DNA of 64,000 nt, taken from contig JAOUMY010000005.1 of assembly GCA_029881255.1 (NCBI GenBank), positions 259,531 through 323,530 of the forward strand, written 5' to 3'. The position numbers were made by a program, and so were the translations under genes. Of the stretch, positions 3,624-64,000 are shown one piece after another. Every line of letters starts with the position of its first letter. The first letter of the stretch is position 1. The DNA is from Gammaproteobacteria bacterium (GTDB taxonomy: Bacteria; Pseudomonadota; Gammaproteobacteria; S012-40). The notes under the pieces were generated by a model, which saw only the letters and a list, made by a program, of their open reading frames with translations, had not been told where the DNA came from and ran no database searches.

Positions 3624-4322
3624 TTATCTCCAAGGGTTCTTGACAGTTGCATCACTCAAAGGCGGAGTCCAGTCAGCTGGCTTGGGCTTGGAGTGACACT
3701 TGGTACAGGATTTCGTAGTCGGTGGAAAAGAAACCTTTCCATGACACACACCACATTTCTGACCAAGAATAATCGCAGACATATTGATCTGATTTGCACC
3801 GCGCTGAGGTATGAAAATCTTCGGGTGACAGTTAGAACAATGTAGCCATTGAGTATGCGGCTTGTGTGGAAATACCACGTCAGGCACAGAGGCCTTTACA
3901 GGACGGACGATATCGAGGTCCATTACGAACGGCTCGACATCAGGATCCTGACGATCGTAACGTGGATTCAACATGCCATCATTTAGTGACTTAACCCAGT
4001 CAATGTGGTTACCAAATTCCGTTGTTGGCAAACCTTCGTATGCAACCTTTGGCGGCTGCAGTGAGAAGGTAGGTTCGTTAGCGGTATCATGGATTCCATC
4101 TTCTGCCGGCGCAGCATTTGGATCTTTGATCTTTTTCAACAGACGGTTGAAAGTGTTGGCACCAGATACATTCATCTTTGAAGGCACGGAACCAGTCACT
4201 TCAGCAGAAGAAACCGGTGCACTCGCGGCAACCGCTAAAGGAGCGATCTCAGACGCCTGTACCATTACTGGCAACGCGGTAAAAGTTACCGCAATTGCAA
4301 AAGTTCTTAATACGTTTCTCAT
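3624..4322 (-). CDS. Triheme c-type cytochrome, secreted; paralog of 1186-1782.
   Basis: Signal peptide. Heme motifs CSNCH, CGVCH, CTKCH. Block FPHKPHTQWLHCSNCHPKIFIPQRGANQINMSAI matches the paralog. Confidence 0.7.
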   Translation of the reverse strand: MRNVLRTFAIAVTFTALPVMVQASEIAPLAVAASAPVSSAEVTGSVPSKMNVSGANTFNRLLKKIKDPNAAPAEDGIHDTANEPTFSLQPPKVAYEGLPTTEFGNHIDWVKSLNDGMLNPRYDRQDPDVEPFVMDLDIVRPVKASVPDVVFPHKPHTQWLHCSNCHPKIFIPQRGANQINMSAIILGQKCGVCHGKVSFPPTTKSCTKCHSKPKPADWTPPLSDATVKNPWR

Positions 4323-4336
4323 TGGTATTCCTCTCC

Positions 4337-4792
4337 CTACTTCTTATAGCCGTCTTGTACAGTGTCTTTCTGATCCAGGGCCTTATAGGCTGGCGCTACG
4401 AGACGTTGTACTGTACTTCCGCTGATGTGAGTTGGTGTACCTGGAATACCTGAGTGACACATGCCGCAGTTTTCAACTGACCATGAAATCTCTCCGTTGT
4501 GGCAAGCACCACAAAATTGGCCATCAATAATCTTCGCCATTGTAATCTTGTTTCCACCGGCCTTGAACTTAAAGCCCAAATCCGCGTGACAAACCTTACA
4601 GCGAAAACGAATGCGGTGATACCAATGAGGAAAAACTACTGGTCGCATACCCGCCGCATCCGCGTAGTTATTGATGACGACGTCTGCATATTCTGCGTGA
4701 GCCGGCTGTGGCATTACCACAACTGCAACCCATGCTAATGCACCGAATAAGGCGAACTTCCAAATGTTAGTGCGCTCTGCTTTGGCTCTCAT
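4337..4792 (-). CDS. Small triheme c-type cytochrome (c3/c7-like), secreted.
   Basis: Signal peptide ending AHAEY. Heme motifs CKVCH, CGACH, CGMCH. Block VFPHWYHRIRFRCKVCH...KITMAKIIDGQFCGACH is related to the other triheme paralogs. Confidence 0.7.
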   Translation of the reverse strand: MRAKAERTNIWKFALFGALAWVAVVVMPQPAHAEYADVVINNYADAAGMRPVVFPHWYHRIRFRCKVCHADLGFKFKAGGNKITMAKIIDGQFCGACHNGEISWSVENCGMCHSGIPGTPTHISGSTVQRLVAPAYKALDQKDTVQDGYKK

Positions 4793-4853: not shown

Positions 4854-6671
4854 TCAGAAATTGCGATTAATCTGAAAAATCAACGATATGGATCCCAAAC
4901 CGGAATTACTTATAACACCACGCCCAACGAGTGAAGTCGCCAGTTTGCCAATGTTATACCCAAGCTGATTCTCCCAGTCTCCCTGCAAACGATCTTCCCC
5001 CGACTTATTGATCGTTGAAGAAAGATCAAACTTGGTCCGAAATTTGAGCTTATATATACCAAACAAACGCGAATGTTGGTAGCTCAATCTGCCCGTTGCC
5101 ACCGTCAGAAACTCGTCGAAAAATTTGGCATCGCTGCCTCCTTCGTCCCGACGAGAACTCTGCAAGGAAAAATTTCCACTCCAGGCGCTTAAGCGCGTGA
5201 TAGGCATGGATCGGGAGATTTGCATATTTATAATCTGCATCTCCAACGAATTATCGAAAAAGCTTCGAGTATCCATTGCCGTTAATTGCGCATACGCGCC
5301 GCCAGTGTTCACATCCAGATTCCACGCAAAGCTGCCTGAGTGTGACACCGTCAGTATCGAACCAAGATCTTTTGTTACTAAATATTCGCGTGCTTGTTGC
5401 GTGAAACTAGTACGCAAACTCGATCGGTTTCCCGTAATCCAATGTCGACTAATGCTATGACCAAGTCCTGCGTTCAAGTTTTGCGAAAGATCTAAGTCGA
5501 AGTCTGTTGAAGCACCTATTTTGCTGCGTTCACTTCCGGCGTCATTACCTATTCCAGCATTAGAAAACCAGCGATATTGAAAACCACGGCGTATCACTTG
5601 GTCAGATTGATACATTAACTGTACATTCTGTTTGGAACTTATATTCTGGCGACTCTCCGTATCGAGCGCGTTTCCACTAACTGACGCGGTCAGTTGCGTG
5701 CGACGATTTATCGTATAGGTACCTGAAAGAAAAGCATTCACGCCCTGGGTATCATTAATCAAAGAATCGTTATTATTGGTAAACTGGCGCAAATTTACAC
5801 GCAAAGCACCGTTAAGAACATATGGCCTGTAAACCGGACGCCAGTAGAAAAAGCTCGAGGCCTGACTCACTTCACTACTGCTGTCATTCGTACCACTCTT
5901 GTCCGTGTAATTGATATGAGACCCAAGAGTCTTTATATAAAACTCACTATTCGGAACGTAATGGTGCATGGCGGTGAGATACCCAGCTTGCGTTTTGCTC
6001 CCCGGGGTAATCCCTCCCTCTCTTGTCTGATAAGAACCTGTCGCATAAAAATTATGGTTGGCAACACGCGACTGTATTTTTCCGCCATAAGTCTGTTCAC
6101 TTGAATCACCAATCGTACTTGACGTCTGTCTGGCCCGATCCTGTATCCACAAATCTAACTGATCACCGCTACGACCGATAAAACTCTGCTTAACACCGAA
6201 AAAACGCGTTTTGATATCGAGCCCAAGCCTAAGCAGATCTTTTCCTGGAAATTTTACTACTGAATCACTAGTCGCAGGATCAAGATTGTTCTGCATGTAA
6301 AAAGAAGCCACCATCGGCGCACGACTGCGGGGTAAAAATCGAAAATCGCTTCTTGAAGACAACAATAAGGATCGCTTCTCTACGCCCTCTTCCACCAATG
6401 AAAACGCACCGGTACCGGATCCGCCCACGTTAAACGTCGCAAACCATGGCTGCCATAAATAACTATCCGCGTTTAATGAACCGACTACATAAGAGCTCTG
6501 TGATCGCTTTGCCTCTTCAGTGACATACAAAGCGTAGTTATAGCCCAAGTTGCCACTCAAATTCAGGGGAGACGTCGATGCCTGAACGGCCGACAGAAGA
6601 AGACCGCAAAATAATATCGCGAATACCACAGCTGCAGGTCTAAACATTATCACCTGCACTGTATGCACCAT
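4854..6671 (-). CDS. Large outer-membrane beta-barrel (porin-like) protein, about 600 aa. It has no CxxCH motif.
   Basis: Signal peptide (AVQAS). Ser/Thr/Asn/Gln/Gly/Tyr-rich composition with alternating hydrophobic residues throughout. C-terminal Phe (…INRNF) as in many outer-membrane proteins. Confidence 0.6.
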   Translation of the reverse strand: MVHTVQVIMFRPAAVVFAILFCGLLLSAVQASTSPLNLSGNLGYNYALYVTEEAKRSQSSYVVGSLNADSYLWQPWFATFNVGGSGTGAFSLVEEGVEKRSLLLSSRSDFRFLPRSRAPMVASFYMQNNLDPATSDSVVKFPGKDLLRLGLDIKTRFFGVKQSFIGRSGDQLDLWIQDRARQTSSTIGDSSEQTYGGKIQSRVANHNFYATGSYQTREGGITPGSKTQAGYLTAMHHYVPNSEFYIKTLGSHINYTDKSGTNDSSSEVSQASSFFYWRPVYRPYVLNGALRVNLRQFTNNNDSLINDTQGVNAFLSGTYTINRRTQLTASVSGNALDTESRQNISSKQNVQLMYQSDQVIRRGFQYRWFSNAGIGNDAGSERSKIGASTDFDLDLSQNLNAGLGHSISRHWITGNRSSLRTSFTQQAREYLVTKDLGSILTVSHSGSFAWNLDVNTGGAYAQLTAMDTRSFFDNSLEMQIINMQISRSMPITRLSAWSGNFSLQSSRRDEGGSDAKFFDEFLTVATGRLSYQHSRLFGIYKLKFRTKFDLSSTINKSGEDRLQGDWENQLGYNIGKLATSLVGRGVISNSGLGSISLIFQINRNF

Positions 6672-6845
6672 GCGTCACAAATAACAACGGCACCCCTCCA
6701 CCGATGAATGAGACTATTCATATGCTTTCAGGAAAACACAGACAGACCGTGAAACGGTCGTGACGAGCTCTCCTCCCTATTCAAATTTCTGAAGTCGTTT
6801 TAACTTGCAAAAACTCGCGACTTTCAGCGTTGTAAGGCTATCGGT

Positions 6846-7820
6846 CTATAGACCAGCCATATCGATTGTTATAGTTGCCCTGGATTTCAGATTTCGCAAC
6901 AAATCTGCCCAGGCTTGTTTAGCCCGCTCCCGTTGCCATAACTGGCGGACTCGATCCTTAACCTTCTCGTATTCATTCAACTGGGCGTCAAGCGTCTCAT
7001 CCAAACGCAGTATTGCAACGCCCTGCAACATCATCACGGGGTCACTAATTTCATTTTCTTTCATTCCATTGAGGACTTTCTCTGCCTGTGGAGAAAGCAT
7101 ACCCTGATGTAGAAAGCCCATATCGCCGCCGTTAGACGCCGATGGATCACCAGAATGTATACGTGCGGCGTCAGCAAAGTCCGCTCCACTACGCAAGCGC
7201 TTAACCAGTTTTTGCGCTTCGTCGCTAGCAGCCTGCCAAACGTCAGCACCAGACGACGGCGCGACCTTTAACAGGATTAGCGAAACGCGGCGCTGCATAG
7301 GCGTGGTAAATAGCTCGCGGTTTCCATCGTAAAATTTCTGCGCTTCTTTTTCATTCGGGACACCTATCTCTTGCACCCTCTGACGAAGTTGTTCCAGCAA
7401 ATTTTCTTCTTCCAGCGCCGCACGCAAACCAGCCAGCATGCCCTCACGGTTACGCTCCCAATCTGGACGTGACGCATAACGTTTCTCATAAGTCTTGAGC
7501 TGAGATTCAACAGACTTAGCATCGGCTGTAATTTTCTGCTTCTTCGCCTCACGCAACAACAACAACCGCTCAATCAAGGTATCAGAGACTTCTTGTTTGA
7601 ATGCCTCAAGCTGTTGTTCAGGAATCTTGCCGTGGTAAAAGCGCTTGCGCACACCCGCCTGATAGGCCATACGAAAATCGTGTTTGGAAATCTGTTCGCC
7701 GTCTACGACAGCAAATGCATCATTCTCTTTGGCTGTTGCTTTGGCATCGGGCTTGGCATAGGCAGCTACCTGCCACAAAACCAGCAAAACGACTAAGCCC
7801 GCTTTTACAACTCCGCGCAT
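6846..7820 (-). CDS. Periplasmic peptidyl-prolyl cis-trans isomerase, SurA/PpiD-like with a parvulin domain.
   Basis: Signal peptide. Parvulin signature ...SGDPSASNGGDMGFLHQGML... A chaperone-like N-terminal helical region is present. Confidence 0.7.
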   Translation of the reverse strand: MRGVVKAGLVVLLVLWQVAAYAKPDAKATAKENDAFAVVDGEQISKHDFRMAYQAGVRKRFYHGKIPEQQLEAFKQEVSDTLIERLLLLREAKKQKITADAKSVESQLKTYEKRYASRPDWERNREGMLAGLRAALEEENLLEQLRQRVQEIGVPNEKEAQKFYDGNRELFTTPMQRRVSLILLKVAPSSGADVWQAASDEAQKLVKRLRSGADFADAARIHSGDPSASNGGDMGFLHQGMLSPQAEKVLNGMKENEISDPVMMLQGVAILRLDETLDAQLNEYEKVKDRVRQLWQRERAKQAWADLLRNLKSRATITIDMAGL

Positions 7821-7844
7821 CTCTACTTACCTGTTCCGCACTGT

Positions 7845-8744
7845 TTACTTAACGTGACACGTCAAACACAAACCGCTTGGTGTGTCTGTATTGCTAATGC
7901 GCAGAAAAGTTGGGTTTACAGTTTCATGCGGATCATGGCAACTGGCGCATTCCACAAAAGGTTCTTGTTCAGACTGTCCAGGATAACCATTTTGTGCGTC
8001 ACGAGTATAAAGCAGGACATCATGTTTTGTACGCTCACCATCGCCGCCGTTGCGCCAATCATGGTCAACCCACCAGATATAACGACCGTCTTTTACTTTA
8101 TAGTTCACTTCAGCAAAATCAGGGTCGTTAGTGTCTCCACGACTGGGTTTCGGACGAGAAGCACTTACGCCGCCACCGGCATATTGCATTCCTATAGGGT
8201 GATCGTTGGTTAAGTCCGTTCCGAGATTTTGAACCAGACCCGGGGCAATCACAGAGCTATTGTCATTAGATCCGATTCCACCTAACTGCTGATCCGCGCC
8301 CGTCCAACGTCCAGCGGAAAAACTCGGGTTCTCTGCACCAGAACCAGGTTCATTGATGAGATTGTCGAGAGCTATGGTACCGTCATGACATGACAGACAG
8401 CCGATAGAAACAGAACCCACATCAGCAATACGTGCGTCGAATGTCGACGTGCCCAATTGATCATAAGTCTGATAAACAGCTGGATTGGCTAGTTTGCGAT
8501 TCCAGAGTGGAATAGCTGCGCTGGAATCACCACCATGAGGGGTATGACAGAAGACACAGATTTCGGCTGTTCCTGAAAATTCATTACGCTCGCCACCGTT
8601 GGCGCTGGTACTTGTACCCGTAACACCGAGATTGTGCACGGATTCGGCAATCCCAGCCCAGGCAACTTTTGTATTGACAGTCAACACAAGACCTATGCCT
8701 GCAACGACTGCAAAACTCGCCAAGGCCTTCAGGTTAGCTCTCAT
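7845..8744 (-). CDS. Tetraheme c-type cytochrome, secreted, with CxxCHxxH 'paired CXXCH'-style motifs.
   Basis: Signal peptide. Heme motifs CVFCHTPH, CLSCH, CASCHDPH, CLTCH. Gly/Asn/Asp-rich loops between the heme sites. Confidence 0.7.
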   Translation of the reverse strand: MRANLKALASFAVVAGIGLVLTVNTKVAWAGIAESVHNLGVTGTSTSANGGERNEFSGTAEICVFCHTPHGGDSSAAIPLWNRKLANPAVYQTYDQLGTSTFDARIADVGSVSIGCLSCHDGTIALDNLINEPGSGAENPSFSAGRWTGADQQLGGIGSNDNSSVIAPGLVQNLGTDLTNDHPIGMQYAGGGVSASRPKPSRGDTNDPDFAEVNYKVKDGRYIWWVDHDWRNGGDGERTKHDVLLYTRDAQNGYPGQSEQEPFVECASCHDPHETVNPTFLRISNTDTPSGLCLTCHVK

Positions 8745-8903
8745 TTCCCCCCCTAAATCTAGAATCCACGTATCAACAAGGCTGATCGATTTCTATCGCT
8801 CTACTATAAAGCCTTATCCCAGCATACTGGACAAAGGCCTTACTCTAGACGACTAACCTTGTTTTCGCAAGACTGAATGTAAGGAAATATAAGAGCAAAT
8901 CAG

Positions 8904-9971
8904 TCAACGAATCACAGACTTGGCGCTGTCTTCATCGAGTAGTCGCCAAACATCAATCGATCTCAAGGCCTGATCCACTATATAGATAAATCCCTTTTCA
9001 TCGCTCGCCACTCCCGAGGGAAGTAGATATCGCCCTGGTTCACCGGGCGGCTCTTGATTCCCCAGCACCAACAACAATTGTCCGTCGCTGTTAAAAAACT
9101 GTACATTCTGAAATGCTGTGTCCGAAATCACGAACAAACCGTTATGAGTTAGCGCCAATCCACGCGGCCTGGCCAATTGCCCCAAGCCGCGCCCAAGCCC
9201 GGCCCAACTGCTTTTGTACTTTCCCTCGGAATCGAACACCTGAACACGAAAGTTTCCCGCATCCAACACCACAAGATCACCCTGCAGACTTACCGTCACC
9301 TGGTTAGGATGATTAAACTGTCCTTCACCATGACCGCGTTCACCAATAAAGCGTTTGAATTTACCTTCAGAATCAAACTGAGTGACGCGATGCCGTGTTG
9401 AATCCACGCCACCTCGATCCAGGGCAAACACATCGTTATTTAACGATGAAACCGCAACATCACTAAGCCGATCAAACAGATCCGGCGTTCCAATTTCGCG
9501 CAGATAAAGGCCATATGCATCGTAGACTATGATCTTACCGCGCGCACTATCGGCAATATAAACCTGCTTGTTGTTGTCGATTGCAATTCCTGCAGGTTTT
9601 TCAAGTTTTCCTTCCCTCCGCCAGCCGAATGCAAAAAAGCGCCGACGTTGCAAATCGAACATATACGCGACGGCATCGCGACTATCCGTAATGGCAACTA
9701 AACCGTGCCGAGCCGCAATATCATAAGGCTTGTTCATGCCGGGAGCGGACTCCAACTCGCCGGTCGCAAAGCGCTGGAATCTTTGCAGAGTGGAATCGCG
9801 AACAAGATCTTCGCCAGAACGAAGACGTGCTTCCAGTTTCAATCTGGGCAAGTCCGGCGCGGGTGGCCAGTAAAAAGGTTTATTCTCAATTATCGGTGCG
9901 TTTGAACACGCTGATAACACCGACGTCAGAAAAGCAAAGCTCAACCAAAAAACCAGAATACTGAACCGCAT
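8904..9971 (-). CDS. NHL-repeat beta-propeller lipoprotein; paralog of 83-1231.
   Basis: Lipobox VLSACS. Repeated [IV]A[IV][TD]D / YV[AF]D segments (LVAITDSRDAVAYMFD, VYIADSARGKIIVYD, LVVLDAGNFRVQVFD, LFVISDTAFQNVQFF, IYIVDQALRSIDVW). Confidence 0.6.
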   Translation of the reverse strand: MRFSILVFWLSFAFLTSVLSACSNAPIIENKPFYWPPAPDLPRLKLEARLRSGEDLVRDSTLQRFQRFATGELESAPGMNKPYDIAARHGLVAITDSRDAVAYMFDLQRRRFFAFGWRREGKLEKPAGIAIDNNKQVYIADSARGKIIVYDAYGLYLREIGTPDLFDRLSDVAVSSLNNDVFALDRGGVDSTRHRVTQFDSEGKFKRFIGERGHGEGQFNHPNQVTVSLQGDLVVLDAGNFRVQVFDSEGKYKSSWAGLGRGLGQLARPRGLALTHNGLFVISDTAFQNVQFFNSDGQLLLVLGNQEPPGEPGRYLLPSGVASDEKGFIYIVDQALRSIDVWRLLDEDSAKSVIR

Positions 9972-32745: not shown

Positions 32746-33723
32746 ATGAATCTGACACAGTTACGCCATATCGATGCCATAGTAAAAAATGCTTACAACC
32801 TTTCCCGTGCAGCCGAAACGCTGCACACTACACAGCCCGGTGTGAGTACTCAGTTACGCGCTTTGGAAGACGAATTAGGAGTAATGATCTTTGAGCGCAA
32901 AGGCAAACGCATAATAGGCTTAACCGCTGCCGGCGAATCGATCGTCAGCATGAGCCAGGAAATCCTGCAAAAAATTCGTGCAATACGTGCTGTTGGGGAG
33001 GAGTTTAGCCAAGAGAAAAAAGGGACGTTTACCATAGCCACCACTCACACCCAGGCCAGATATGCGCTCCCAGCTATTATCACGCGCTTTGTAAAACGTT
33101 ATCCTGACGTTCAACTGCGTATTCGACAAGGACATCCACAGCAAATTTCCGAAATGGTGATTCAGGGCGATGCTGATATTGCAATTGCAACCGAGGCCAT
33201 CGCATCTTACCAACAGCTGCTTATGTTACCCGTGTATCGCTGGAACCGGTGCCTGATTGCACGCTCCGGACATCCAGTTTTGAAACCACGCAAACCGACG
33301 CTGGACCTGATCGCGCAATTTCCTATCGTGACCTATGACTTTGCCTTTGCCGGCCGTTCCGCGATGAATAAGTCGTTTATTGAGGCAGGACTCAAACCCA
33401 ACATAGTGTTAACTGCAATCGACTCCGACGTTATCAAACACTATGTGGAACTTGGGCTAGGGATAGGTGTACTTGCACATATGGCATACGATGAGAAACG
33501 AGACAAGAAATTGCGCTGCAAAGATGTCAGTCATCTCTTTGATGACAGTGTTACCAGTATCGGTATACGACGCGGCAGTTTTCTACGCGGTTACATGCTC
33601 GAGTTTGTCGAAATGTTTGCACCGCACCTCAGCATTGGACAGATTTCATCGTTACTGACTAAGCATAGTCCGGAACTGGAAAATGAGTTAATGCAAAAGC
33701 TGACAGACTTGCCTTTGCGCTAG
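32746..33723 (+). CDS. LysR-family regulator, CysB-like.
   Basis: HTH LSRAAETLHTTQPGVSTQLRALE; TTHTQARYALP motif typical of CysB-family members. Divergent from the sulfite-reductase-like gene. Confidence 0.75.
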   Translation: MNLTQLRHIDAIVKNAYNLSRAAETLHTTQPGVSTQLRALEDELGVMIFERKGKRIIGLTAAGESIVSMSQEILQKIRAIRAVGEEFSQEKKGTFTIATTHTQARYALPAIITRFVKRYPDVQLRIRQGHPQQISEMVIQGDADIAIATEAIASYQQLLMLPVYRWNRCLIARSGHPVLKPRKPTLDLIAQFPIVTYDFAFAGRSAMNKSFIEAGLKPNIVLTAIDSDVIKHYVELGLGIGVLAHMAYDEKRDKKLRCKDVSHLFDDSVTSIGIRRGSFLRGYMLEFVEMFAPHLSIGQISSLLTKHSPELENELMQKLTDLPLR

Positions 33724-35510
33724 CGAGTCAATAAGTGACAATCATTACAGCCAATAACCTGCCCACTACCGTACTGAATGACGCTACCGGCTTTTGTAAT
33801 AAAGCTACGAGCGGCCAGTGCACGTGATAGATGTGTACCTTCCAGCGACAAGCCATGACAGGATTGGCAACTTTTCGGATCGGCATTGTAAAATCGACCA
33901 TGTTCGGAACCCATCCACTGGGGATCATCAATATTGTGTAGTCCATGGGGGCCATTTAGAGAAACGGGAACGCCTTTTTCATGACATACCTCGCACTGAC
34001 TGATGGTACCGACGTGCCCTTGCAGCTGGATCGGGATCAAATTATCCACCATGCCGGGAATTGAGCTACTCCAAATAGCGTGCGGACTACCATGACAACC
34101 CTGACAGGCCACGCCACCGTGACCAACACTTTGACGATACAACTTATCCGGCTCTTCTGCATAGCGTCGATTAACGGCTAGACGCTGGGTGGCAAACACG
34201 TCGGATTCATCAAAGGTTCTGTTCAACACTATCGAGTCGCCCAAATGCTGAAGCGCATCGCCCGTATGGCAAGACTCGCAACGTGGTTCATCGAGAAACG
34301 GTCTTCGTTGTTCGGATGAACCGACCATAGGGGATTTACCTACCGCGAGCATGCCACCGTGACAGCTTTGGCAGTTGATTCCGCTCTTGCTCATAGCATC
34401 TCTAACATAGGGTGCTTCACGACCGTGACAATACATACAACTGGTATTCCCATCCTCTGGAATATTTTGTGTTTCGTTTGAAACGGCCAACTGATATTGG
34501 TTGTTTAAGGCATGTGCAGCATGTATTGAAATCGACAATGGTAATCGTCGTTGTTGATGAAAGGTTGACGGCCCCAAACCATCCGGATCTGCAACTGGCG
34601 AGTAGTGGCACTCAGCACACATCAGCGGTGTTCTCTTTAATAAATCGAGGCCTGTCGTTGCCCCATGCAATAGCAAAACGTTTTCCTTTCCTTGGTTGTC
34701 GATATCTGAATTTTGACTCCACTCAATATCGATACCCAGACGTTGACTGACGGCATCGTTTGCTGCAATCTCACCCGTCGCATGACAGTGGGCACAATCC
34801 ATTGGTTTAGCCATGGGTAACACAATGTTTGTAGATGCAAGCAAGCGTGGATGTTCTCCGCGAACGATCGCACTAATTTGGAATTGCGGAAAATAGTTTA
34901 GATTACCGTTATCATCTATTGGTGTAATCGGTACCCATGCAGCGGTAAACTCTTTGGTCTTCGCATCAAACAAACCAAATGTTTGTGGAATGTTATTAAG
35001 CCCGGGCATGTTCTGTCCATCAAACAGTAATCCTCGCACCCCGCCATCTAGCGGAATCCGAACTTGATTGCCAAGTAAAAACCGGTATAGCTCGCCGGCA
35101 TGTTCCCAAAAATTCGTCTTGCTGGCGCTGCTGGTATTGATAGAACCATAGCGGTCCATAGTGCCCTGATACTCAAGTTTAACTTCGGTATTATCGAGTA
35201 ATACAGGCAATTGCTTTTTATCGGTAGACGTTTTTATCACCTGAGCCTTGATGAAATTGGCAGGAGGAAATATTGCAAACACCGAAAAATCTTGATCAGG
35301 AAAGGCCATTCCCCTGCGGTTAACCGCAAGTACTTTATAGTGCTCAGTGCCGCCTAGATTGCTGCTTCCATTTGAGTCATTCTTGTGCCGCGATGAAAAG
35401 TCTCTTTCCGCACATCCTCCCAAAGCAATAAGTGAGAACAGCAGAACAAGAAGAAAATTTAGAATTCGTAAAATCGAAGCACTATTCGACATGAAATATT
35501 TGCCAACCAA
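33720..35510 (-). CDS. Nonaheme c-type cytochrome lipoprotein with a ~250-aa heme-free N-terminal domain.
   Basis: Lipobox LIALGGC. Nine CxxCH motifs: CAHCH, CAECH, CMYCH, CQSCH, CESCH, CQGCH, CEVCH, CQSCH, CNDCH, all in the C-terminal ~350 aa. Confidence 0.75.
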   Translation of the reverse strand: MVGKYFMSNSASILRILNFLLVLLFSLIALGGCAERDFSSRHKNDSNGSSNLGGTEHYKVLAVNRRGMAFPDQDFSVFAIFPPANFIKAQVIKTSTDKKQLPVLLDNTEVKLEYQGTMDRYGSINTSSASKTNFWEHAGELYRFLLGNQVRIPLDGGVRGLLFDGQNMPGLNNIPQTFGLFDAKTKEFTAAWVPITPIDDNGNLNYFPQFQISAIVRGEHPRLLASTNIVLPMAKPMDCAHCHATGEIAANDAVSQRLGIDIEWSQNSDIDNQGKENVLLLHGATTGLDLLKRTPLMCAECHYSPVADPDGLGPSTFHQQRRLPLSISIHAAHALNNQYQLAVSNETQNIPEDGNTSCMYCHGREAPYVRDAMSKSGINCQSCHGGMLAVGKSPMVGSSEQRRPFLDEPRCESCHTGDALQHLGDSIVLNRTFDESDVFATQRLAVNRRYAEEPDKLYRQSVGHGGVACQGCHGSPHAIWSSSIPGMVDNLIPIQLQGHVGTISQCEVCHEKGVPVSLNGPHGLHNIDDPQWMGSEHGRFYNADPKSCQSCHGLSLEGTHLSRALAARSFITKAGSVIQYGSGQVIGCNDCHLLTR

Positions 35511-52983: not shown

Positions 52984-53753
52984 AACTCACTCCCTTTGAA
53001 TTTCCCAAAAATACTACGATAAGCTGCATGATTATGCAATCAAGCCAATACTGACTAACGCGTATAACGTTTGCACGCTACAATCTGAATAAATATGACT
53101 ATTTTTGCATTTATCGCGTATTGGCTACTCGTACTGGTCGTGGGCTATCTCGCCTACTGCCTGACACACAGGGTAAGGTCTCAGACTATGTCGCGACTCT
53201 ATGCGTCGGTGCCAGCTATTCCATGCTGTGTCTGACTTCCCGTATTGCATTGACCATGGGTACGGTCATTATCATGTCAAATATTGTGATTGACGGATTC
53301 CTCGCAGTTTCGTAGACCGATCTTATTCAGGGTTTGCTTATGGCAGCAATACTGGTGAAAGTGTCGCTTATGTTGTTCTTTGAAGTGGTGGCCTATTTGA
53401 TGTCTAGGAAATTGTACCCGGTTTTATTTTTTCTCTAGCCAGCATCCTAGTCGTAAGCAGGTACAGCGCCCCTCTACCGCCACATATCATCAAAGATTTC
53501 GACGATGCTACAAAATAGGCATATTTGCTCTTCAGCCAACATTAAACTCCCCAGGGAATAATCAGTCTGCGTTCAGAAAACTATATTAATTTACGACCTA
53601 ACTATCAGATTTTAGGGGAATTGATCGAGGGCACAGCACCAGACAAATACTCTAAAATAATATAACCTATCGTTTCAGTTAGATTTTTTTACAAATAAAA
53701 TTGCTAACAATAAGAAAGAGCAGGACGCTCCAATGCTGGAGGGGAGTACGGAA

Positions 53754-55574
53754 ATGAAGTTGTACAGTGTAAAGGCAGTCTTATGTCTGTTTGTTTTTCT
53801 ATTTATCAGTTCTTGTGAAGCACCCCCAACATACAAACGCCCCGGCATTAAGGGATCAAACCTCCATATTCGCGAGGCCACTCTCGTCCCATTTGATCCA
53901 GCACTCTATGAGCTTGCAGACCTGCATTGGGGTGGTCGCCTATATGATCATTGGTGGACAAATCAAGATGGCACAATGTTGCCGGTACCTGCTGAAACCG
54001 CAACTACTCACGAGCTATGGCCGGTGGAAAATACCAACGAGGCCGGAGTAGTTACCTGGGAATGTAGCTCCTGTCATGGCTGGGACTACCAGGGAGTTGA
54101 CGGTATCAATGGCAAACCTGCCAGCCCATTTCATACCGGTATCAAAGGCATCATACCTATAAGCGGTGGTAGCCAACCCGTGCTACAGACACCGGAAGAA
54201 GTATATAACTTTCTACACGACGGCATGGTCGATACGCTGTCTCATTCATTTGGTCACGTGATTCTCGATGACATGGCGATATATGCCCTGACCAAATTTG
54301 TTATCACTATGCACGAAGACGCATTAGCGCAGCGCGCTCCAAGTAACTACATTAATCAGGAAACCGGACTTACGGCTGGTGTGGAAGCGGACGGAGCGAC
54401 AATGTTCGGCCTCGATATCACCGAAGGTGGTTGTCAGGCCTGTCATGGCGCAGATGGAAAGATGATCGATTTCATTGATGGTGACCCAGCGACTCAACCT
54501 AACGAATTTGTTGATACTCTGGCGCGCGAAAACCCTTGGGAAACACTGCATATCATCCGCTTTGGTCAACCCGGAAGCGAACCTGTATTCATGAAAGGCC
54601 TGGGCGAATATCCCGCACATGCAACAAAGGATGTGCTGCACGAGGCGGTCAATATTGTCGCCTACGCACAGAACGGCCTGATCGCCAGTGCGACTGGTTT
54701 CGACTTCAGAACCTTCCAGGCTGGCGCAGATCACGCTACCGCGAATCAACCCGCACTCGATTTCGCACGCGGCGGTATCCTCTACGACGAATGGTGGACG
54801 GCACATGACGAAACCGCACCGCTTGTTGTTCCACCGGAGATTGTCGGTGTCGATCATGCATTGTGGACACCTGCTGCGACTAACCTAACACCAGCAGCTG
54901 GAGAAATTACCTGGCGCTGTAAAGCCTGTCATGGCTGGGACTATGTGGGCGCAGACGGAATCAATGGTGTCAGTGGCAGCAGTTACGAAACCGGCATTAA
55001 GGGCATCGTAACGTCTCACAACACTATGCCAACCCATATGGAACCTGTAGCAATCTACGATTTCATCCATTCAGGAACGGTGCATGCTGAAGGAGATCAC
55101 GCCTTCGCAGCACACGTATCACCTGAGGACTTGTATGCGCTAACACGTTTAGTCGTCGATTTGCAGCAAGAAGCAATGCACGGCATGGCGCCTGATGACT
55201 TTATCGATCTCGCCACCGGAACCGTAACAGGTGGCAACGTCGAACATGGTCAGACGGTATTTCATGCAGCCGCAGATGCCGGAGGCTGTGGCGATGCCGC
55301 ATGTCACGGCCCAGATGGTACGGCGATTGATTTAGCACCTGCGGGCGAACCACCTATCTTTCTGCATAATTTTGTTCTTGCAGATCCGCAGGAAGCTTTG
55401 CATAAAATCCGATTCGGAAATCCAGGAAGTGCAATGCCCGGGCATGCCGATCATCATGATCTCCTGAATTTAATGGACTCAATTAGCGTTCTTGAGTTTA
55501 TCGAAGGCGGCATACTGCCACCCCCAACGGCTGCGCCGGCAGCAGGCTTTATAAGCAATTACTATCGGCGCTAG
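53754..55574 (+). CDS. Tetraheme class-I-type c cytochrome lipoprotein, built as a tandem duplication of a diheme module. The fourth heme site is CX4CH.
   Basis: Lipobox FISSCEAP. Heme motifs CSSCH, CQACH, CKACH and CGDAACH. Repeated blocks W.C..CHGWDY.G.DGING...GIKGI and GGC..CHG.DG..ID...IRFG.PGS. Confidence 0.75.
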   Translation: MKLYSVKAVLCLFVFLFISSCEAPPTYKRPGIKGSNLHIREATLVPFDPALYELADLHWGGRLYDHWWTNQDGTMLPVPAETATTHELWPVENTNEAGVVTWECSSCHGWDYQGVDGINGKPASPFHTGIKGIIPISGGSQPVLQTPEEVYNFLHDGMVDTLSHSFGHVILDDMAIYALTKFVITMHEDALAQRAPSNYINQETGLTAGVEADGATMFGLDITEGGCQACHGADGKMIDFIDGDPATQPNEFVDTLARENPWETLHIIRFGQPGSEPVFMKGLGEYPAHATKDVLHEAVNIVAYAQNGLIASATGFDFRTFQAGADHATANQPALDFARGGILYDEWWTAHDETAPLVVPPEIVGVDHALWTPAATNLTPAAGEITWRCKACHGWDYVGADGINGVSGSSYETGIKGIVTSHNTMPTHMEPVAIYDFIHSGTVHAEGDHAFAAHVSPEDLYALTRLVVDLQQEAMHGMAPDDFIDLATGTVTGGNVEHGQTVFHAAADAGGCGDAACHGPDGTAIDLAPAGEPPIFLHNFVLADPQEALHKIRFGNPGSAMPGHADHHDLLNLMDSISVLEFIEGGILPPPTAAPAAGFISNYYRR

Positions 55575-56578: not shown

Positions 56579-57166
56579 TCAATCAAAGTCCGCAACTAAA
56601 GCATTGCGATAATTTTCGGGAAGTGGCTTCACTACCGTTGAATAGGCATTGTGATCAACACCTATCGCGATCGCTGCACCGGTTCGGGCCTTTTCGATCA
56701 TACCTGGGGTAAACTCGAATCGTAGAAAATGTACCGAGGAAGTTTTTTCATCAGTCTCGCGATCCAAATCTTCGTTTGCGATTGGATATACTTTGTCGCA
56801 ATCATCAATTTGCACCCAAACTTGGCGCTCTATACCGATGAGCTGCCCCAACATCTTTTTACGTTCATCCACGTCAGGGTATTCGATCATAAACGTGGCC
56901 TTCCAGTTAGATCCATCGGGAATGAGTGGATTGTAGGCTTCCAGTTCTTCTTTTATACCATCGGCTTCAAAGATCTTTTCGATGCGTAGCATTTCCTGCA
57001 CCTGATACTGAACCGTCAGACGGTCTTCAAAATACAAGGTCGCATTCTGCCCCAAGTGAACCGTTCGGTTCTTTTTATGTTCGATGACTTTGGCGCGAAA
57101 CTCCTTTCGAGCTTCCGCATAGGATTCCAGAGACATTAAATCACTACGTGTAAGTTTGTCAGACAT
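56579..57166 (-). CDS. DUF3501-family protein.
   Basis: Sequence and gene context: follows a CCG-domain Fe-S protein and a rubrerythrin, a recurrent triad. Confidence 0.6.
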   Translation of the reverse strand: MSDKLTRSDLMSLESYAEARKEFRAKVIEHKKNRTVHLGQNATLYFEDRLTVQYQVQEMLRIEKIFEADGIKEELEAYNPLIPDGSNWKATFMIEYPDVDERKKMLGQLIGIERQVWVQIDDCDKVYPIANEDLDRETDEKTSSVHFLRFEFTPGMIEKARTGAAIAIGVDHNAYSTVVKPLPENYRNALVADFD

Positions 57167-57204
57167 GCTACCTCTACTATCTGTCCATCACTGATACAGT
57201 AAAA

Positions 57205-58548
57205 CTAAATTCCGTAAGCCATACGCAAAAGACTCAAGGGATGTGTCGCACCACGACCATCTTTTAAACCGTTTTCTATCTGATCGCCCGCCATTGGACA
57301 GTCGCTGGTATAGTGATCTGGTTCAAATTTCTTGACCTTGTTGATCACGGGTCGACATATCTTCATGGAAATATCGTGGTACTCTTGCTTTACCGCATAC
57401 GTCCCATCGTGGCCCGAACATCGCTCAATAAGATCGATTTCAGTTCCTGGCGTTAATGCCAACACATCCCGGGTTTTCAAACCGATGTTCTGTACTCGCA
57501 AATGGCAGGATGCATGATACGACACCTTACCCAAACCTCGCTGGAAACTGGTGTTTAACTTTCCAGCCTTGTGTCTAAGCATGAGATATTCAAACGGGTC
57601 ATAGATGTGTTGTTTTACTTTTTGTACATCTCTATCATCCGGGAACATCAAGGGCAATTCCTGTTTAAACATCAATACACAGGACGGAACCGGTCCAACG
57701 ATATCAAAACCCTGCTCTATCATTTCAATCATTACCGGGATGTTTTTGTTTTTTGCCCTTTCAACTGCCTCCAGATCACCGAGCTCCAACTTAGGCATAC
57801 CACAACATACTTCGGAATCTATTAGTTTGGTATGAAGTTGATTGTGTTCGAACACGGCAACCAGATCTTCCACTATCTGTGGCGCATTGCGGTTGCCATA
57901 ACAGGTAACAAACACCGCAACCTTGCCTGCGGTCTGCTCCGTAGCCTCTGATTGCGCCAAAGACTTATGGCTGGCTAGCCGTTTGCGCGCTGTATGGCTA
58001 TGATATTGCGGAACCACCGCGTCAGTATGTATACCGAGTACGCTTTGTAAAATCTTGCGCGTAGCCTGAATTTTATTGGCGCTGTTTACCACACCAGACA
58101 CAACGGGAATACCTGCCAAAGAGCCAACGGCATCTGTCGAGGTCAGTATCTTGTCTCGCAGCTTCACGTCCCCCTTGCGATGCTTTACTGCCTTTGCACG
58201 CAACATCGTGTGTGGAAAATCCAGATTCCATTCGTGCGGGGGAACATAAGGACACTTCGTCATATAACACAAATCACACAAATAGCAGTGATCGACGACT
58301 TTCCAGTAATCTTTTTTCGCGACTCCATCAACTTCCATGGTGTCGGACTCGTCTACCAGATCAAAAAGTGTCGGGAAGGCATTGCAAAGACTGACGCATC
58401 GGCGACATCCATGACAAATGTCATAGATGCGCTCAAGTTCGTGCATGAGTGATTCTTCGTTATAAAACTCGGGGTTTTTCCAGTCGAGCGAATGTCGCGT
58501 AGGAGCCTCCAGGCTACCTTCACGCACAGGGGATTTCGGTCCAGACAT
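57205..58548 (-). CDS. (Fe-S)-binding oxidoreductase of the HdrD/GlpC type, with two 4Fe-4S ferredoxin motifs and two CCG cysteine-rich domains.
   Basis: CHGCRRCVSLC and CYLCDLCYMTKCP ferredoxin-like motifs. CCG-type motifs CCGMP...C and CSGHDG. Confidence 0.75.
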   Translation of the reverse strand: MSGPKSPVREGSLEAPTRHSLDWKNPEFYNEESLMHELERIYDICHGCRRCVSLCNAFPTLFDLVDESDTMEVDGVAKKDYWKVVDHCYLCDLCYMTKCPYVPPHEWNLDFPHTMLRAKAVKHRKGDVKLRDKILTSTDAVGSLAGIPVVSGVVNSANKIQATRKILQSVLGIHTDAVVPQYHSHTARKRLASHKSLAQSEATEQTAGKVAVFVTCYGNRNAPQIVEDLVAVFEHNQLHTKLIDSEVCCGMPKLELGDLEAVERAKNKNIPVMIEMIEQGFDIVGPVPSCVLMFKQELPLMFPDDRDVQKVKQHIYDPFEYLMLRHKAGKLNTSFQRGLGKVSYHASCHLRVQNIGLKTRDVLALTPGTEIDLIERCSGHDGTYAVKQEYHDISMKICRPVINKVKKFEPDHYTSDCPMAGDQIENGLKDGRGATHPLSLLRMAYGI

Positions 58549-58593
58549 AAAACTCCCTTGGAATGACAGTCTGTTTATTCTTTTTTTGGTGAG

Positions 58594-58622
58594 AAAAACT
58601 GGCCACGGATGTGGCCAGTTTT
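58594..58622 (-). terminator. Perfect hairpin terminator/attenuator between the rubrerythrin gene and the Fe-S gene. Minus strand reads CTGGCCAC-atcc-GTGGCCAG followed by TTTTTCTC.
   Basis: 8-bp GC-rich stem flanked by an A-run and a T-run. Internal to an apparent operon, which suggests polarity control giving more rubrerythrin than downstream products. Confidence 0.5.
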
Positions 58623-58638
58623 ACGTGTACTCTTTGAT

Positions 58639-59055
58639 CTAGTCGAGTGTGTCGAGGGCCTTCTGAAAACGATTAGCGTGAGAACGCTCGGCCTTTGCCA
58701 GTGTTTCAAACCAATCAGCAATTTCATCAAAACCTTCATCACGAGCCGTTTTAGCCATACCCGGATACATATCTGTGTATTCATGGGTTTCGCCCGCAAT
58801 CGACGCCTTGAGATTATCGGAGGTATTTCCAATTGGTAATCCTGTTGCAGGATCGCCTACCTCTTCAAGATATTCCAGGTGACCATGGGCATGACCGGTT
58901 TCACCTTCTGCCGTCGAACGGAAAACAGTTGCGACATCGTTATAACCTTCGACGTCTGCTTTGGCAGCAAAGTAAAGATAACGACGATTTGCCTGAGATT
59001 CGCCGGCAAAAGCGTCCTTCAGATTTTTTTCTGTTTTACTACCTTTTAACGACAT
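58639..59055 (-). CDS. Rubrerythrin-family ferritin-like diiron protein; no rubredoxin domain.
   Basis: ExxH diiron motifs ([18 protein letters not shown]) in a four-helix-bundle sequence. Confidence 0.85.
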
Positions 59056-61015: not shown

Positions 61016-61155
61016 ACTACGGTTTATCTGATGATGGAACAAGTCATCAGTGATAAGTGTTCGGGTAGATACCCGCTCCCCATATCACCGCATCTACACG
61101 GCTTTCGATGTGGCGCGTGTGGTGTTGTTGTTCTTGTACGGTAGTCTGGTGTGGC

Positions 61156-61236
61156 CTACATGCCACCGCCCATTCCTCCGCCCATACCGCCCATGCCGCC
61201 GCCTCCTCCACCACCCATACCACCCATGCCACCCAT
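61156..61236 (-). CDS. Putative 26-aa Met/Gly-only peptide, MGGMGGMGGGGGGGMGGMGGGMGGGM. An overlapping 107-aa ORF in another frame (61047-61370) is the alternative reading.
   Basis: Minus strand reads AAGGAGGT-cact-ATG GGT GGC ATG ... ATG TAG. The SD is a perfect 8-mer with ideal spacing. Confidence 0.35.
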   Translation of the reverse strand: MGGMGGMGGGGGGGMGGMGGGMGGGM

Positions 61237-61474
61237 AGTGACCTCCTTCGGATAATGTAGGTGAATGCAGTCTGGAACTGCGCCATAGTAGCGCCTTGAT
61301 TTAATAGAAAAAAACCAAGACACTCGTTGAGTATAGACAATATATGTCTATTTTTCCAAAACCGGGCCAAGCCGATTTCGGGCAGAGTCTAGGCAGGCAA
61401 GATTAATCCAGGTTTAAACGTTGGAAAAAGGCAATATAGCGGCCCGGCTTGATACCACCAACCAAAACGATCTT

Positions 61475-62043: not shown

Positions 62044-62643
62044 TTGGAAGAGGCTATAACAACATTGAACTTCCAAGACCGCCGCATAATCGTCATTGTT
62101 CTGGTCTGTATTTCCATAGTCGCACTCGCGTTATTGGGTGGACTCGGCATGAGTGCGTTTATAAAAACCACAAGCACTAACGAGTTCTGTATTTCCTGTC
62201 ACGAGATGGAAACGACGGTATATCAGGAGTATCGGCGAACCACGCATTATAAAAACGTCAGTGGCGTAAGCGCCGGTTGTGCTGATTGCCATATACCACA
62301 TGACCTCGGCACAACCATCATTCGCAAATTTGCAGCCGTCAAAGATATTTATCATCATCTCCTGGGGACAATCGACACTACGGAAAAATTCGAAGCACGT
62401 CGCCTGGAAATGGCGCAAAGAGTATGGGCTTCGATGAAAGCGTCAAACTCCCGCGAATGCCGCAACTGCCACAGTTTCGACTCTATGGATATGGACAAAC
62501 AACGTCAACGCGCCTCTAAAATGCACCAGCAAGCCACTAAAGACGGTGAAACTTGCATCGAGTGCCACAAGGGAATCGCACACAAAGCAGTTCATGATTT
62601 GATGGAAACATCAGAAGAAGAAAATATTATCTTGGAGTTTTGA
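62044..62643 (+). CDS. NapC/NirT-family membrane-anchored tetraheme cytochrome (quinol dehydrogenase). TTG start is needed to include the TM anchor.
   Basis: N-terminal TM IIVIVLVCISIVALALLGGLG. Heme motifs CISCH, CADCH, CRNCH, CIECH with NapC-typical spacing. Confidence 0.8.
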   Translation: MEEAITTLNFQDRRIIVIVLVCISIVALALLGGLGMSAFIKTTSTNEFCISCHEMETTVYQEYRRTTHYKNVSGVSAGCADCHIPHDLGTTIIRKFAAVKDIYHHLLGTIDTTEKFEARRLEMAQRVWASMKASNSRECRNCHSFDSMDMDKQRQRASKMHQQATKDGETCIECHKGIAHKAVHDLMETSEEENIILEF

Positions 62644-62660
62644 ATGACGGGGATGAAAAA

Positions 62661-63593
62661 ATGAGATCAGGGAAAATTGCTCTCCTGATATGTGCCGTTG
62701 TCTCACCAAATGTCTATGCAAACAACATTGATTGGGGACAAGTGGACAGTCAGGAATTCGTTCTGTTTTATCCAGGCCAGGCCTCATGGGAATGGTTACT
62801 CACACAACACAAGGGCTCGAAGAGTCTACGTAAAGGCACTCCCTGTCTCGAATGTCACGAGACAGAAGAAAAACAGATGGGAGCAGCACTCGCCAGCGGA
62901 AAAAAAATGGATTCGGATGCCATTGCGGGCAAACCGGGTTCTGTTACCGTCAGCATCCAGGCAGCCATTGATGCGGATTTTCTGTACCTGCGCGCACAGT
63001 GGCAAGACCCAGAGTTCAGCAGCGGAAAAAAGATGGATGCCAACCACGAAACCAAATTCGCAGTCATGTTTGACGACGGCCGGGTTAAGGAAGCCGGTGT
63101 CGCCGGTTGCTGGGGGGTATGCCATGTCGACGTTGCCAACATGCCTTCTGCCGATGGTGAAAAACGTGAGTTGTATACCAGCAAATCCCGGCAGACCATC
63201 ACTCAAAAGGGCGGTGGTGATAAATACAAAGGCGTCTCGGAGTTAAAGGCATTGCTCGACGAAAATAACTTTATGGAATTCTGGCAAGCACGCCCCGGTA
63301 AGAAATCTATGGAAACGGTTTCAGGATACATCCTCGAAAAACGACATCTCCATCAGGGACAGCCGGTAACCAGTGTAGCGGAAAAAAAAGACAACGTTTG
63401 GACAGTCGAATTCAAGCGACGCCTGAAAACAACAGGCGATGGTCTTAAAAAACTCGACGCTTCCACACCGTTGCAGATAGGATTCGCCATACACGACGAT
63501 TATACCAGCGGACGCTTTCACTACGTATCGTTCGGCAAACGCCTGAGCCTCAACGGTGAAAAATCTGATATTACAGTCAAGAAAATTCACTAA
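62661..63593 (+). CDS. Periplasmic heme-binding protein with one CxxCH and one CX3CH motif; possibly an EB_dh/DOMON-like beta-sandwich.
   Basis: Signal peptide ...NVYA. CLECH and CWGVCH motifs. Follows the NapC-like gene with a 17-nt gap. Confidence 0.5.
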   Translation: MRSGKIALLICAVVSPNVYANNIDWGQVDSQEFVLFYPGQASWEWLLTQHKGSKSLRKGTPCLECHETEEKQMGAALASGKKMDSDAIAGKPGSVTVSIQAAIDADFLYLRAQWQDPEFSSGKKMDANHETKFAVMFDDGRVKEAGVAGCWGVCHVDVANMPSADGEKRELYTSKSRQTITQKGGGDKYKGVSELKALLDENNFMEFWQARPGKKSMETVSGYILEKRHLHQGQPVTSVAEKKDNVWTVEFKRRLKTTGDGLKKLDASTPLQIGFAIHDDYTSGRFHYVSFGKRLSLNGEKSDITVKKIH

Positions 63594-63610
63594 TTCATAG
63601 AGACCAAATC

Positions 63611-64000
63611 ATGAACCAACTGAACAGATTTATATCGGGCGTAGTTAGCCTTCCATTTTTAACTCTAATTTTTTTATCCACATTTAGCATAGAATCGCAG
63701 GCCACCGGTGCCTTTGCACGCGCCACGGGTTCCAAATGCGACAAATGCCACACCCAGTCTTTCCCTCGCCTAAACACTCGCGGAGAGCGTTTCATGCGCA
63801 ATGGGTTTCAGCTAAAAAAGGAAAACGATGGCGGTTTCGGCCTGGACGATGATAAAGGTCAGGAAGAGGATAAACTGCTACGCAAGCTGGCCGAGACTCT
63901 CAGTATCACTGGTGATATGGAATTAATGAGTATGAAGGGTGGCACTGTCACTCCAGAGCTAGGAGTCCCTAATGCCGTGGGATTTCTGGCAACTGGTAGC
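63611..64000 (+). CDS. 5' part of a gene, truncated by the window end, for a secreted protein with a CxxCH motif directly after the signal peptide. Possibly a fused cytochrome-porin of the Cyc2 type.
   Basis: ATG at 63611. Signal peptide, then ...ATGSKCDKCHTQSFPRLNTRGERFMRNGF..., then an acidic linker. No stop within the window. Confidence 0.5.
   Translation, partial: MNQLNRFISGVVSLPFLTLIFLSTFSIESQATGAFARATGSKCDKCHTQSFPRLNTRGERFMRNGFQLKKENDGGFGLDDDKGQEEDKLLRKLAETLSITGDMELMSMKGGTVTPELGVPNAVGFLATGS

Follow-up and report, generated by a model that had tools for sequence, protein, structure and literature searches.

The 64,000-nucleotide stretch of gammaproteobacterial DNA analysed here (the window) ends in three co-directional genes that encode, in order, a NirT-like tetrahaem cytochrome (gene 1), a NirB-like secreted cytochrome (gene 2) and a Cyc2-like fused cytochrome-porin (gene 3), the last of which runs past the window edge (Table 1). 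As the best explanation of the data as a whole, we propose that this operon probably encodes a haem chain between the quinone pool and the outer membrane with a Cyc2-type conduit, through which electrons would most likely flow inwards. The parts of this trio are all of known kinds; what was previously undescribed in the literature searched is that a Cyc2-type protein shares an operon with NirT-NirB and appears to be exchanged with conduits of the MtoAB type. That literature, the coverage of which was incomplete, contained no description of an operon combining Cyc2 with NapC/NirT and EbdC-like proteins.

A NirT/NirB-type pair of c-type cytochromes

Gene 1 lies in an open reading frame (ORF) of 62044..62643 (+) with an alternative upstream TTG start at 62044; the start chosen by the gene caller, TTG 62065, is the likelier one because GGAAGAGG sits at 62046-62053. 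The product has a single transmembrane helix, the N-terminal hydrophobic segment RRIIVIVLVCISIVALALLGGLGMSAF (residues 7-30), and matches the NapC/NirT family PF03264 with an E value of 2.3e-67 (226.5 bits, cut-off 24.1). Its first haem motif stands in a CXXCHXM context (CISCHEM), which has been described before (PMC13390432) and is also present in NrfH and ImoA. The family domain, one N-terminal transmembrane helix, four CXXCH motifs and the CXXCHXM context of haem 1 are all found in gene 1, in agreement with an earlier note on this DNA, which had described a NapC/NirT tetrahaem protein with CISCH, CADCH, CRNCH and CIECH motifs and a membrane anchor. Gene 1 scores below all NCBIfam equivalog cut-offs (228.6 versus 310.6 for TIGR02161, 214.1 versus 349 for NF007906, 229.3 versus 478.2 for TIGR02162 and 55.4 versus 134.2 for TIGR03153); since these include the NapC, TorC and NrfH models, gene 1 is a member of the family and not an orthologue or equivalog of those proteins.

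Gene 2 starts with the ATG at 62661, 17 nucleotides past the stop of gene 1, and begins with a signal peptide (62661-62720) ending in SPNVYA and followed by NN. The protein matches PF09459 (EB_dh) with an E value of 4.6e-31 (109 bits, cut-off 33.3). Its haem motifs show no variation among 14 orthologues at C62, C65 and H66 or at A148-G-C-W151, C154 and H155, giving the consensus sequences C[LRK]ECH and AGCW[GSA]xCH. The earlier note had correctly placed a secreted protein with CLECH and CWGVCH motifs 17 nucleotides downstream of gene 1, and had viewed it as a partner haem protein with an unusual motif. The partner can be refined to a NirB-like cytochrome of EbdC fold; the CWGVCH motif is indeed present, but had already been described for NirB and Dsui_0143. 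Melnyk et al. (2013) reported that the perchlorate reduction island of Azospira pairs a NapC-like tetrahaem protein (PF03264) with an EbdC-like protein (PF09459) that carries one CXXCH and one atypical CWXXCH motif, both of which are kept in NirB of Pseudomonas stutzeri nirSTBM (PMC3884062). The CWGVCH of gene 2 is therefore a known NirB motif. A 2026 study assigns four haems to NirT and two to the cytochrome NirB, and also reports fused NirTB proteins (PMC13086519). Gene 2 combines an EB_dh domain, CXXCH and CWXXCH motifs and a position directly after a NapC/NirT gene, as NirB-type proteins do, and on these sequence features the pair formed by genes 1 and 2 is of the NirT/NirB type. Relatives with 34-36% identity to gene 2 occur as NirT fusions beside a nirS gene (L090). 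The possibility that gene 2 encodes a haem-b gamma subunit of a molybdenum enzyme was rejected, the genes for alpha and beta subunits being absent and the NCBIfam models far below cut-off.

Full-length product of gene 3 and its predicted barrel

After a second 17-nucleotide gap, gene 3 starts with the ATG at 63611 and, as the earlier note had observed, encodes a signal peptide followed by CDKCH before it leaves the window (63611-64000). The signal peptide, read by eye from the sequence, comprises 31 residues, MNQLNRFISGVVSLPFLTLIFLSTFSIESQA, followed by TG; its n-region is basic, its core hydrophobic, and it ends in the cleavage motif SQA. Looking up the exact protein of gene 2 led to two public contigs, L001 (a 248-kb ENA assembly contig) and L002, each of which is 100% identical to the window across the 601 nucleotides compared. 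In L001, gene 3 comprises 422 codons (L001:10951..12219) and ends at window-equivalent position 64879. The public gene call (P0002, 361 residues, "MAG: Gammaproteobacteria bacterium", where MAG stands for metagenome-assembled genome; locus tag OEZ43_12530) leaves out the first 61 codons, window positions 63611-63793 (L001:10951-11133), and with them both the signal peptide and the CXXCH motif. In an alignment of 43 homologues of 388-463 residues, conservation is highest in this N-terminal stretch, where A31, R37, C43, C46, H47, P52, L54, G58, E59, F61, N64 and G65 are invariant. Because its first 61 residues are the best conserved, the 422-residue form is the real one. CDKCH (residues 43-47) is the sole CXXCH in the protein, and a CXXCH is present in every full-length homologue examined. 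No other histidine or methionine is invariant across the clade to which the window protein belongs (the window clade) and the canonical-motif proteins introduced below; M62, in FMxNG, is almost invariant, in the window clade only.

AlphaFold2 predicted 16 beta strands for residues 62-422 from a 57-sequence alignment (predicted local distance difference test score, pLDDT, 81.3; predicted template modelling score, pTM, 0.81). A model of the full-length homologue P0004, which is 60% identical, has the same 16-strand barrel; in front of it lie short helices at the haem motif and an acidic linker modelled with low confidence. Foldseek matched the gene 3 barrel model to OmpU, Omp32, OmpF and PorB at probability 1.0, and the C-terminus …VSVTLRYML aligns with homologue endings of the form …[IL]x[FY]MF. 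Pfam and NCBIfam scans assigned no family to either the window fragment or the full 422-residue protein, and a PDB sequence search with the family profile gave no meaningful match. A homologue search with the 130-residue window fragment returned one match; the broader homologue set came from the full-length query. The earlier note had called for the downstream sequence, naming a C-terminal barrel as what a Cyc2-type protein should have and a short soluble monohaem cytochrome as the contrary outcome. L001 supplies the former, a 422-residue product whose residues 62-422 model as a 16-strand barrel.

Relationship of gene 3 to Cyc2

By the published definition (Keffer et al., 2021; PMC8406198), a Cyc2 protein has at least 365 residues, a signal peptide and only one CXXCH, which is followed four residues later by PXL, and it forms an OprO/OprP-like 16-strand porin. 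Just upstream of the CXXCH lies a further motif, AXPXFAR[Q/K][T/Y], which was used as PXFAR[Q/K][T/Y] in the published database screen. Gene 3 has the signal peptide, a single N-terminal CXXCH, PXL four residues on, the predicted 16-strand porin and the required length. Its N-terminal region reads A-T-G-A-F-A-R-A-T-GSK-CDKCH-TQSF-PRL, in which the upstream motif matches at 5 of 7 fixed positions and stands in the same register as in homologues with the canonical motif. The window clade has a signature of its own, TGxxCxKCH...FPRL[NT]xxGE[RK]FMxNGF, and about nine of its members (for example P0029, P0032 and P0033) carry ATP[AS]FARQT and pass the strict screen.

An exhaustive search with the gene 3 profile retrieved 3842 cluster representatives at E <= 1e-3, among which those with E values near 1e-20 to 1e-30 carry the canonical pattern AIPAFARKY-xxx-CxxCH-xx[FY]PKLNxFG. 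Look-ups of cluster members and a profile search with canonical-motif matches led only to entries annotated as "hypothetical protein" from MAGs. When the window clade was aligned with 37 such canonical-motif proteins, hhalign gave a probability of 100% and an E value of 8.8e-56 over 373 columns, i.e., end to end; the window fragment of gene 3 reached an E value of 5.7e-20 against the same kind of proteins. We conclude that gene 3 represents a putative divergent subfamily of the Cyc2 superfamily. One surveyed locus holds two Cyc2 types, with a canonical-motif Cyc2 gene (L075:1707-2879) directly upstream of a NirT-NirB-Cyc2-like trio (3303-5713).

Conservation of gene order and alternative partners

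Gene order was surveyed from the Cyc2 side through look-ups of exact proteins together with a scan of 185,579 species genomes, and from the NirB side by a scan of a metagenome collection, from which 80 loci were kept. On the Cyc2 side, a NirB-like gene lies directly upstream of the Cyc2-like gene in all gammaproteobacterial loci (14/14), and a NirT-like gene is also present in 11 of the 12 with enough upstream sequence, while the flanking genes are unrelated. The three-gene order is conserved in an uncultured gammaproteobacterial clade, in which 23 Cyc2-linked loci are non-redundant. Chance adjacency of the three genes was rejected; likewise, the features of the trio are not due to chance, because the Pfam E values lie far beyond the curated cut-offs and the haem motifs are invariant in the 14 gene 2 orthologues and 43 gene 3 homologues. 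A gene for a CHRD-domain protein stands beside the trio at two distinct loci (L004:7336-8184 and L005:3482-4384), once on the downstream and once on the upstream side, and is absent from the window locus.

Cyc2-like genes of Gemmatimonadota, Glassbacteria, Aminicenantes and deltaproteobacterial MAGs occur without the NirT-NirB pair, often after a gene for a small monohaem cytochrome. In the Gemmatimonadota and Glassbacteria MAGs of L017-L021, it is a gene for a monohaem cytochrome of 110-139 residues, and not NirT-NirB, that precedes the distant Cyc2-like genes; L020 and L022 have a decahaem and MtrB pair immediately upstream of the Cyc2-like gene.

On the NirB side, a NapC/NirT gene was found directly upstream in 56 of the 59 loci with room for one. 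Downstream, a DmsE-family decahaem cytochrome and an MtrB/PioB porin follow in at least 36 loci (calls made with TIGR03508 and TIGR03509, above curated cut-offs in three examples) and a Cyc2-like gene follows in 12; in 5-6 loci a single ORF of about 600 residues encodes a NirT-NirB fusion, and in 19 the contig ends too soon to tell. Lineages separated at 95% identity number 23 with a Cyc2 link, 37 with a decahaem link and 4 with a fusion. The NirB domain tree, computed by neighbour joining, midpoint-rooted, without support values and thus indicative only, places all Cyc2-linked sequences as one clade among the decahaem-linked ones, with the fused nir-type sequences outside. One fusion (L090:1230-7240) is part of a nirS-nirTB-c551-nirF-nirD cluster, in which it lies between nirS (Cytochrom_D1, E 1e-114) and the c551, nirF and nirD genes and matches both PF03264 and PF09459. 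Such fusions support a predicted direct contact between NirT and NirB. They also occur in L099, L101, L105, L106 and L107, with a cupredoxin gene after the fusion in L101.

Neither nir genes nor any decahaem or MtrB match were found beside the trio at the window locus. The equivalent downstream slot is occupied elsewhere by a decahaem cytochrome and MtrB/PioB; the window system is an analogue of the MtoAB/PioAB/MtrAB conduits and not a member of that group. Across the surveyed loci, the NirT-NirB pair looks like a portable quinone-pool adaptor.

Candidate electron path and direction of flow

The predicted locations of the three products span the envelope, with a transmembrane anchor in gene 1, a signal peptide without a barrel in gene 2 and a signal peptide with a 16-strand barrel in gene 3, and together they offer seven covalent haem sites. 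These parts and the gene order support the quinone-pool-to-outer-membrane chain that the earlier note had put forward; from gene products, motifs, folds, homology and gene order we infer the contacts between the proteins, the substrate, and with it Fe(II) oxidation, and the direction of flow. The three co-directional genes with their 17-nucleotide gaps would form one operon for an envelope-spanning electron path, co-transcription being deduced solely from spacing and synteny. The NirT-like tetrahaem protein, anchored in the inner membrane, would exchange electrons with the quinone pool. The NirB-like protein, with its EbdC fold, two covalent haems and possibly a third, non-covalent one, would serve as a dedicated periplasmic partner that shuttles or bridges electrons to and from the Cyc2-type 16-strand porin of the outer membrane, whose N-terminal monohaem domain may trade electrons with the substrate at or in the pore. 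Other lineages appear to plug NirT-NirB into cd1 nitrite reductase or into DmsE/MtrB complexes of the MtoAB/PioAB type, and in the gammaproteobacterial clade of the window the outer-membrane partner may have been exchanged for a Cyc2-type fused cytochrome-porin.

The order that we favour leads from Fe(II) or another extracellular donor through the Cyc2-like haem, the NirB-like and the NirT-like protein to quinone, and would feed reverse electron transport for CO2 fixation in a manner analogous to MtoAB-PmcA-ImoA. Uptake is favoured because all Cyc2 proteins tested biochemically oxidise Fe(II) (PMC8406198), the window carries Calvin-cycle genes, and the genes clustered at 83-9971 correspond to those of the "Uet" module for electron uptake.

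Several points weigh against this reading. The earlier note had suggested that the third product is a Cyc2-like fused monohaem-porin, which is borne out by its 422 residues, signal peptide, single CXXCH, 16-strand barrel and homology, whereas the strict motif PXFAR[Q/K][T/Y] fails at two positions (G for P and A for Q/K). The putative link to Cyc2 is made through canonical-motif proteins rather than through a biochemically characterised Cyc2 sequence, and the Cyc2 authors themselves warn that divergent homologues may have other functions and may not be Fe(II) oxidases. At the locus L009, an AcrB-like gene takes the place of the NirT-like gene next to NirB-like and Cyc2-like genes. The promoter and terminator scan of the trio was no better than shuffled controls, the NirB tree is indicative only, and what is suggested for the clade derives from comparative genomics and structure prediction. 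Finally, NirT, NapC and CymA classically oxidise quinol, i.e., they pass electrons outwards, and this textbook role speaks for the strongest alternative.

In that alternative, the same architecture would carry electrons from quinol through the NirT-like and NirB-like proteins and the Cyc2-like haem to an acceptor outside the cell or within reach of the pore, for example Fe(III), Mn(IV), an electrode or a soluble oxidant. In nir clusters the NirT-NirB pair supports nitrite reduction, it is also part of the perchlorate reduction island, ImoA can stand in for CymA as a quinol oxidase in Shewanella (PMC13390432), and the DmsE/MtrB partners of the pair are able to run in either direction (PMC13390463). 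Outward flow is a serious rival; we nevertheless consider it unlikely, given the Fe(II) oxidase activity of all tested Cyc2 proteins, a host that has both Calvin-cycle genes and the Uet module known from an electroautotrophic lineage, and an operon to which no gene for an extracellular multihaem reductase is attached.

It is considerably less probable that the operon encodes no extracellular conduit at all and that NirT-NirB feeds a periplasmic reaction, such as detoxification of peroxide, nitrite or an oxyanion, for which the haem porin admits or senses the substrate. NirT-NirB does work with soluble periplasmic enzymes elsewhere, the gene 3 barrel resembles anion-selective and phosphate-selective porins, and the Cyc2 literature allows for additional functions. 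Yet no reductase gene is conserved beside the trio, the flanks of which differ in every locus, the CXXCH is invariant in every full-length gene 3 homologue examined, and the slot after NirB otherwise holds a decahaem/MtrB conduit, which argues for functional equivalence of the partners. Two other readings of gene 3, as a short and soluble cytochrome with one haem or as a common haem-free porin of 361 residues with an untranslated CDKCH, as the public call P0002 with its start 61 codons downstream would imply, are so improbable that we dismiss them. They are refuted by an ORF that stays open for 422 codons from ATG 63611, by the conservation in 43 sequences of the N-terminus, without which the protein has no signal peptide, and by the 16-strand barrel into which the remainder folds.

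Inward flow through a Cyc2-type conduit would bear on a wider question, as for neutrophilic iron oxidisers the route from Cyc2 to the inner membrane, and especially to the quinone pool for reverse electron flow and CO2 fixation, is still largely a matter of hypothesis. At the window locus, a Cyc2-type protein appears to be genetically hard-wired to a periplasmic carrier and a quinone-linked tetrahaem cytochrome, in what would be a compact, transplantable and testable three-gene system. The same carrier pair serving MtoAB-type conduits in sister lineages would be comparative evidence that Cyc2- and MtoAB-type conduits interchange functionally. It is conceivable, although we hold this with slightly less than even confidence, that NirT-NirB serves generally as a plug-in adaptor, linking the quinone pool to exchangeable conduits of the outer membrane of either the Cyc2 or the MtoAB type, and that the cassette is the first Cyc2-type pathway to be self-contained and to have a quinone route of its own, bypassing bc1 or alternative complex III (ACIII), perhaps bidirectional and transplantable as a unit. 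Cyc2-type pathways are probably undercounted in metagenome surveys, because the public gene call omits the signal peptide and haem motif and the degenerate motif of the clade fails the published screen.

Genomic context

The window encodes PRK and Rpe, and an RbcS-like ORF lies just past its end (Table 1); no gene for the large subunit is adjacent to this ORF. In gene content, the cluster at 83-9971 (- strand) matches the Uet module of Tenderiales, so that the source MAG probably represents an electroautotroph similar to Tenderiales. In the low-complexity region upstream of the operon (61047..61370, -), one frame is rich in W, V, A and E (…WVAWVVWVVEEAAAWAVWAEEWAV…) and another consists of GGMGGMGGGGGGGMGG repeats.

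Table 1. Positions of the three-gene operon and of other features in and next to the window
Feature	Position	Strand	Basis
Gene 1, NirT-like inner-membrane tetrahaem c-type cytochrome, NapC/NirT family	62065..62643	+	Pfam PF03264
Gene 1 haem motifs	CISCH 62188-62202; CADCH 62278-62292; CRNCH 62458-62472; CIECH 62554-62568	+	sequence
Gene 2, NirB-like secreted cytochrome, 310 residues, EbdC/EB_dh beta-sandwich domain	62661..63593	+	Pfam PF09459
Gene 2 haem motifs	CLECH 62844-62858; CWGVCH 63108-63125 (atypical)	+	sequence
Gene 3, first 130 codons of 422-residue Cyc2-like fused monohaem cytochrome-porin	63611..64000, continues past window edge	+	sequence and L001
Gene 3 features	signal peptide 63611-63703; ATGAFARAT 63701-63727; CDKCH 63737-63751; PRL 63764-63772; then acidic linker and start of barrel	+	sequence
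RbcS-like ORF, 111 residues, not called by gene caller	L001:12279-12614, window-equivalent 64939-65274, ~60 nucleotides past gene 3 stop	+	PF00101 E 1.3e-14
Uet-type cluster: tetrahaem protein; peptidyl-prolyl isomerase (PPIase); three c7-type trihaem proteins	7845..8744; 6846..7820; 4337..4792, 3624..4322, 1186..1782	-	gene content
Uet-type cluster: 605-residue protein, no Pfam match, probably a barrel; NHL-repeat proteins	4854..6671; 83..1231, 8904..9971	-	gene content
Multihaem cytochrome, 596-residue ORF, nine CXXCH, unlinked to either cluster	33720..35510	-	motif count
613-residue protein, three CXXCH, weak class-I cytochrome c matches	53733..55574	+	motifs, family scan
DUF3501, CCG-domain Fe-S protein (heterodisulfide-reductase-like) and rubrerythrin in a row	56579..59055	-	annotation
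Low-complexity region between ATP-binding cassette (ABC) transporter gene and operon; 79-residue gene call	61047..61370	-	frames

Relation to known electron-transfer systems

The NirT-NirB half of the operon has its closest described counterparts in denitrification and perchlorate reduction. In nirSTBM of Pseudomonas (Stutzerimonas) stutzeri, and in fused NirTB, a NapC/NirT gene is likewise followed by the gene for an EbdC/EB_dh periplasmic cytochrome with CXXCH and CWXXCH motifs, a likeness that rests on the published motif description and not on direct sequence comparison; the window locus differs in having no nirS or other nir gene and in its predicted partner, an outer-membrane cytochrome-porin instead of a periplasmic reductase. 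Dsui_0144 and Dsui_0143 of Azospira suillum PS share with genes 1 and 2 the pairing of PF03264 with PF09459 and both haem-c motifs of the EbdC-like protein (PMC3884062). In contrast to the window pair, they serve, non-essentially, a periplasmic perchlorate reductase, and their gene order and neighbours are different.

Gene 3 resembles Cyc2 as known from A. ferrooxidans, Mariprofundus (Cyc2PV-1) and Leptospirillum (Cyt572) (PMC8406198) in its signal peptide and single N-terminal CXXCH, in FAR..T three residues before the first cysteine and PxL four residues after the histidine, and in the predicted OprP-like 16-strand porin of a protein of about 420 residues, with end-to-end profile homology to canonical AxPxFAR[K/Q][Y/T] proteins. 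It differs from Cyc2 in its ATGAFARAT and the extended signature of its own clade, and in forming an operon with a NirT-NirB pair, a context that we have not found described for Cyc2.

The best-studied analogue of the whole path is MtoAB-PmcA-ImoA of Sideroxydans lithotrophicus ES-1, in which ImoA, of the NapC/NirT family, has been proposed to reduce the quinone pool (PMC13390432), and a cluster of NapC/NirT, a c-type cytochrome, DmsE and MtrB/PioB in Ferrovaceae has been described as a putative iron-cycling pathway (PMC13390463). The Mto pathway and the DmsE-MtrB/PioB clusters share with the window operon, as predicted, an outer-membrane conduit, a periplasmic cytochrome and a quinone-linked NapC/NirT protein of the inner membrane, and the closest relatives of the window NirT-NirB are encoded directly upstream of a DmsE decahaem cytochrome and an MtrB/PioB porin. 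Unlike in Mto-type systems, the outer-membrane part in the window would be one polypeptide with one haem instead of a 26-strand porin sheathing a decahaem cytochrome, and the periplasmic carrier would be an EbdC-fold NirB-like protein instead of the monohaem PmcA.

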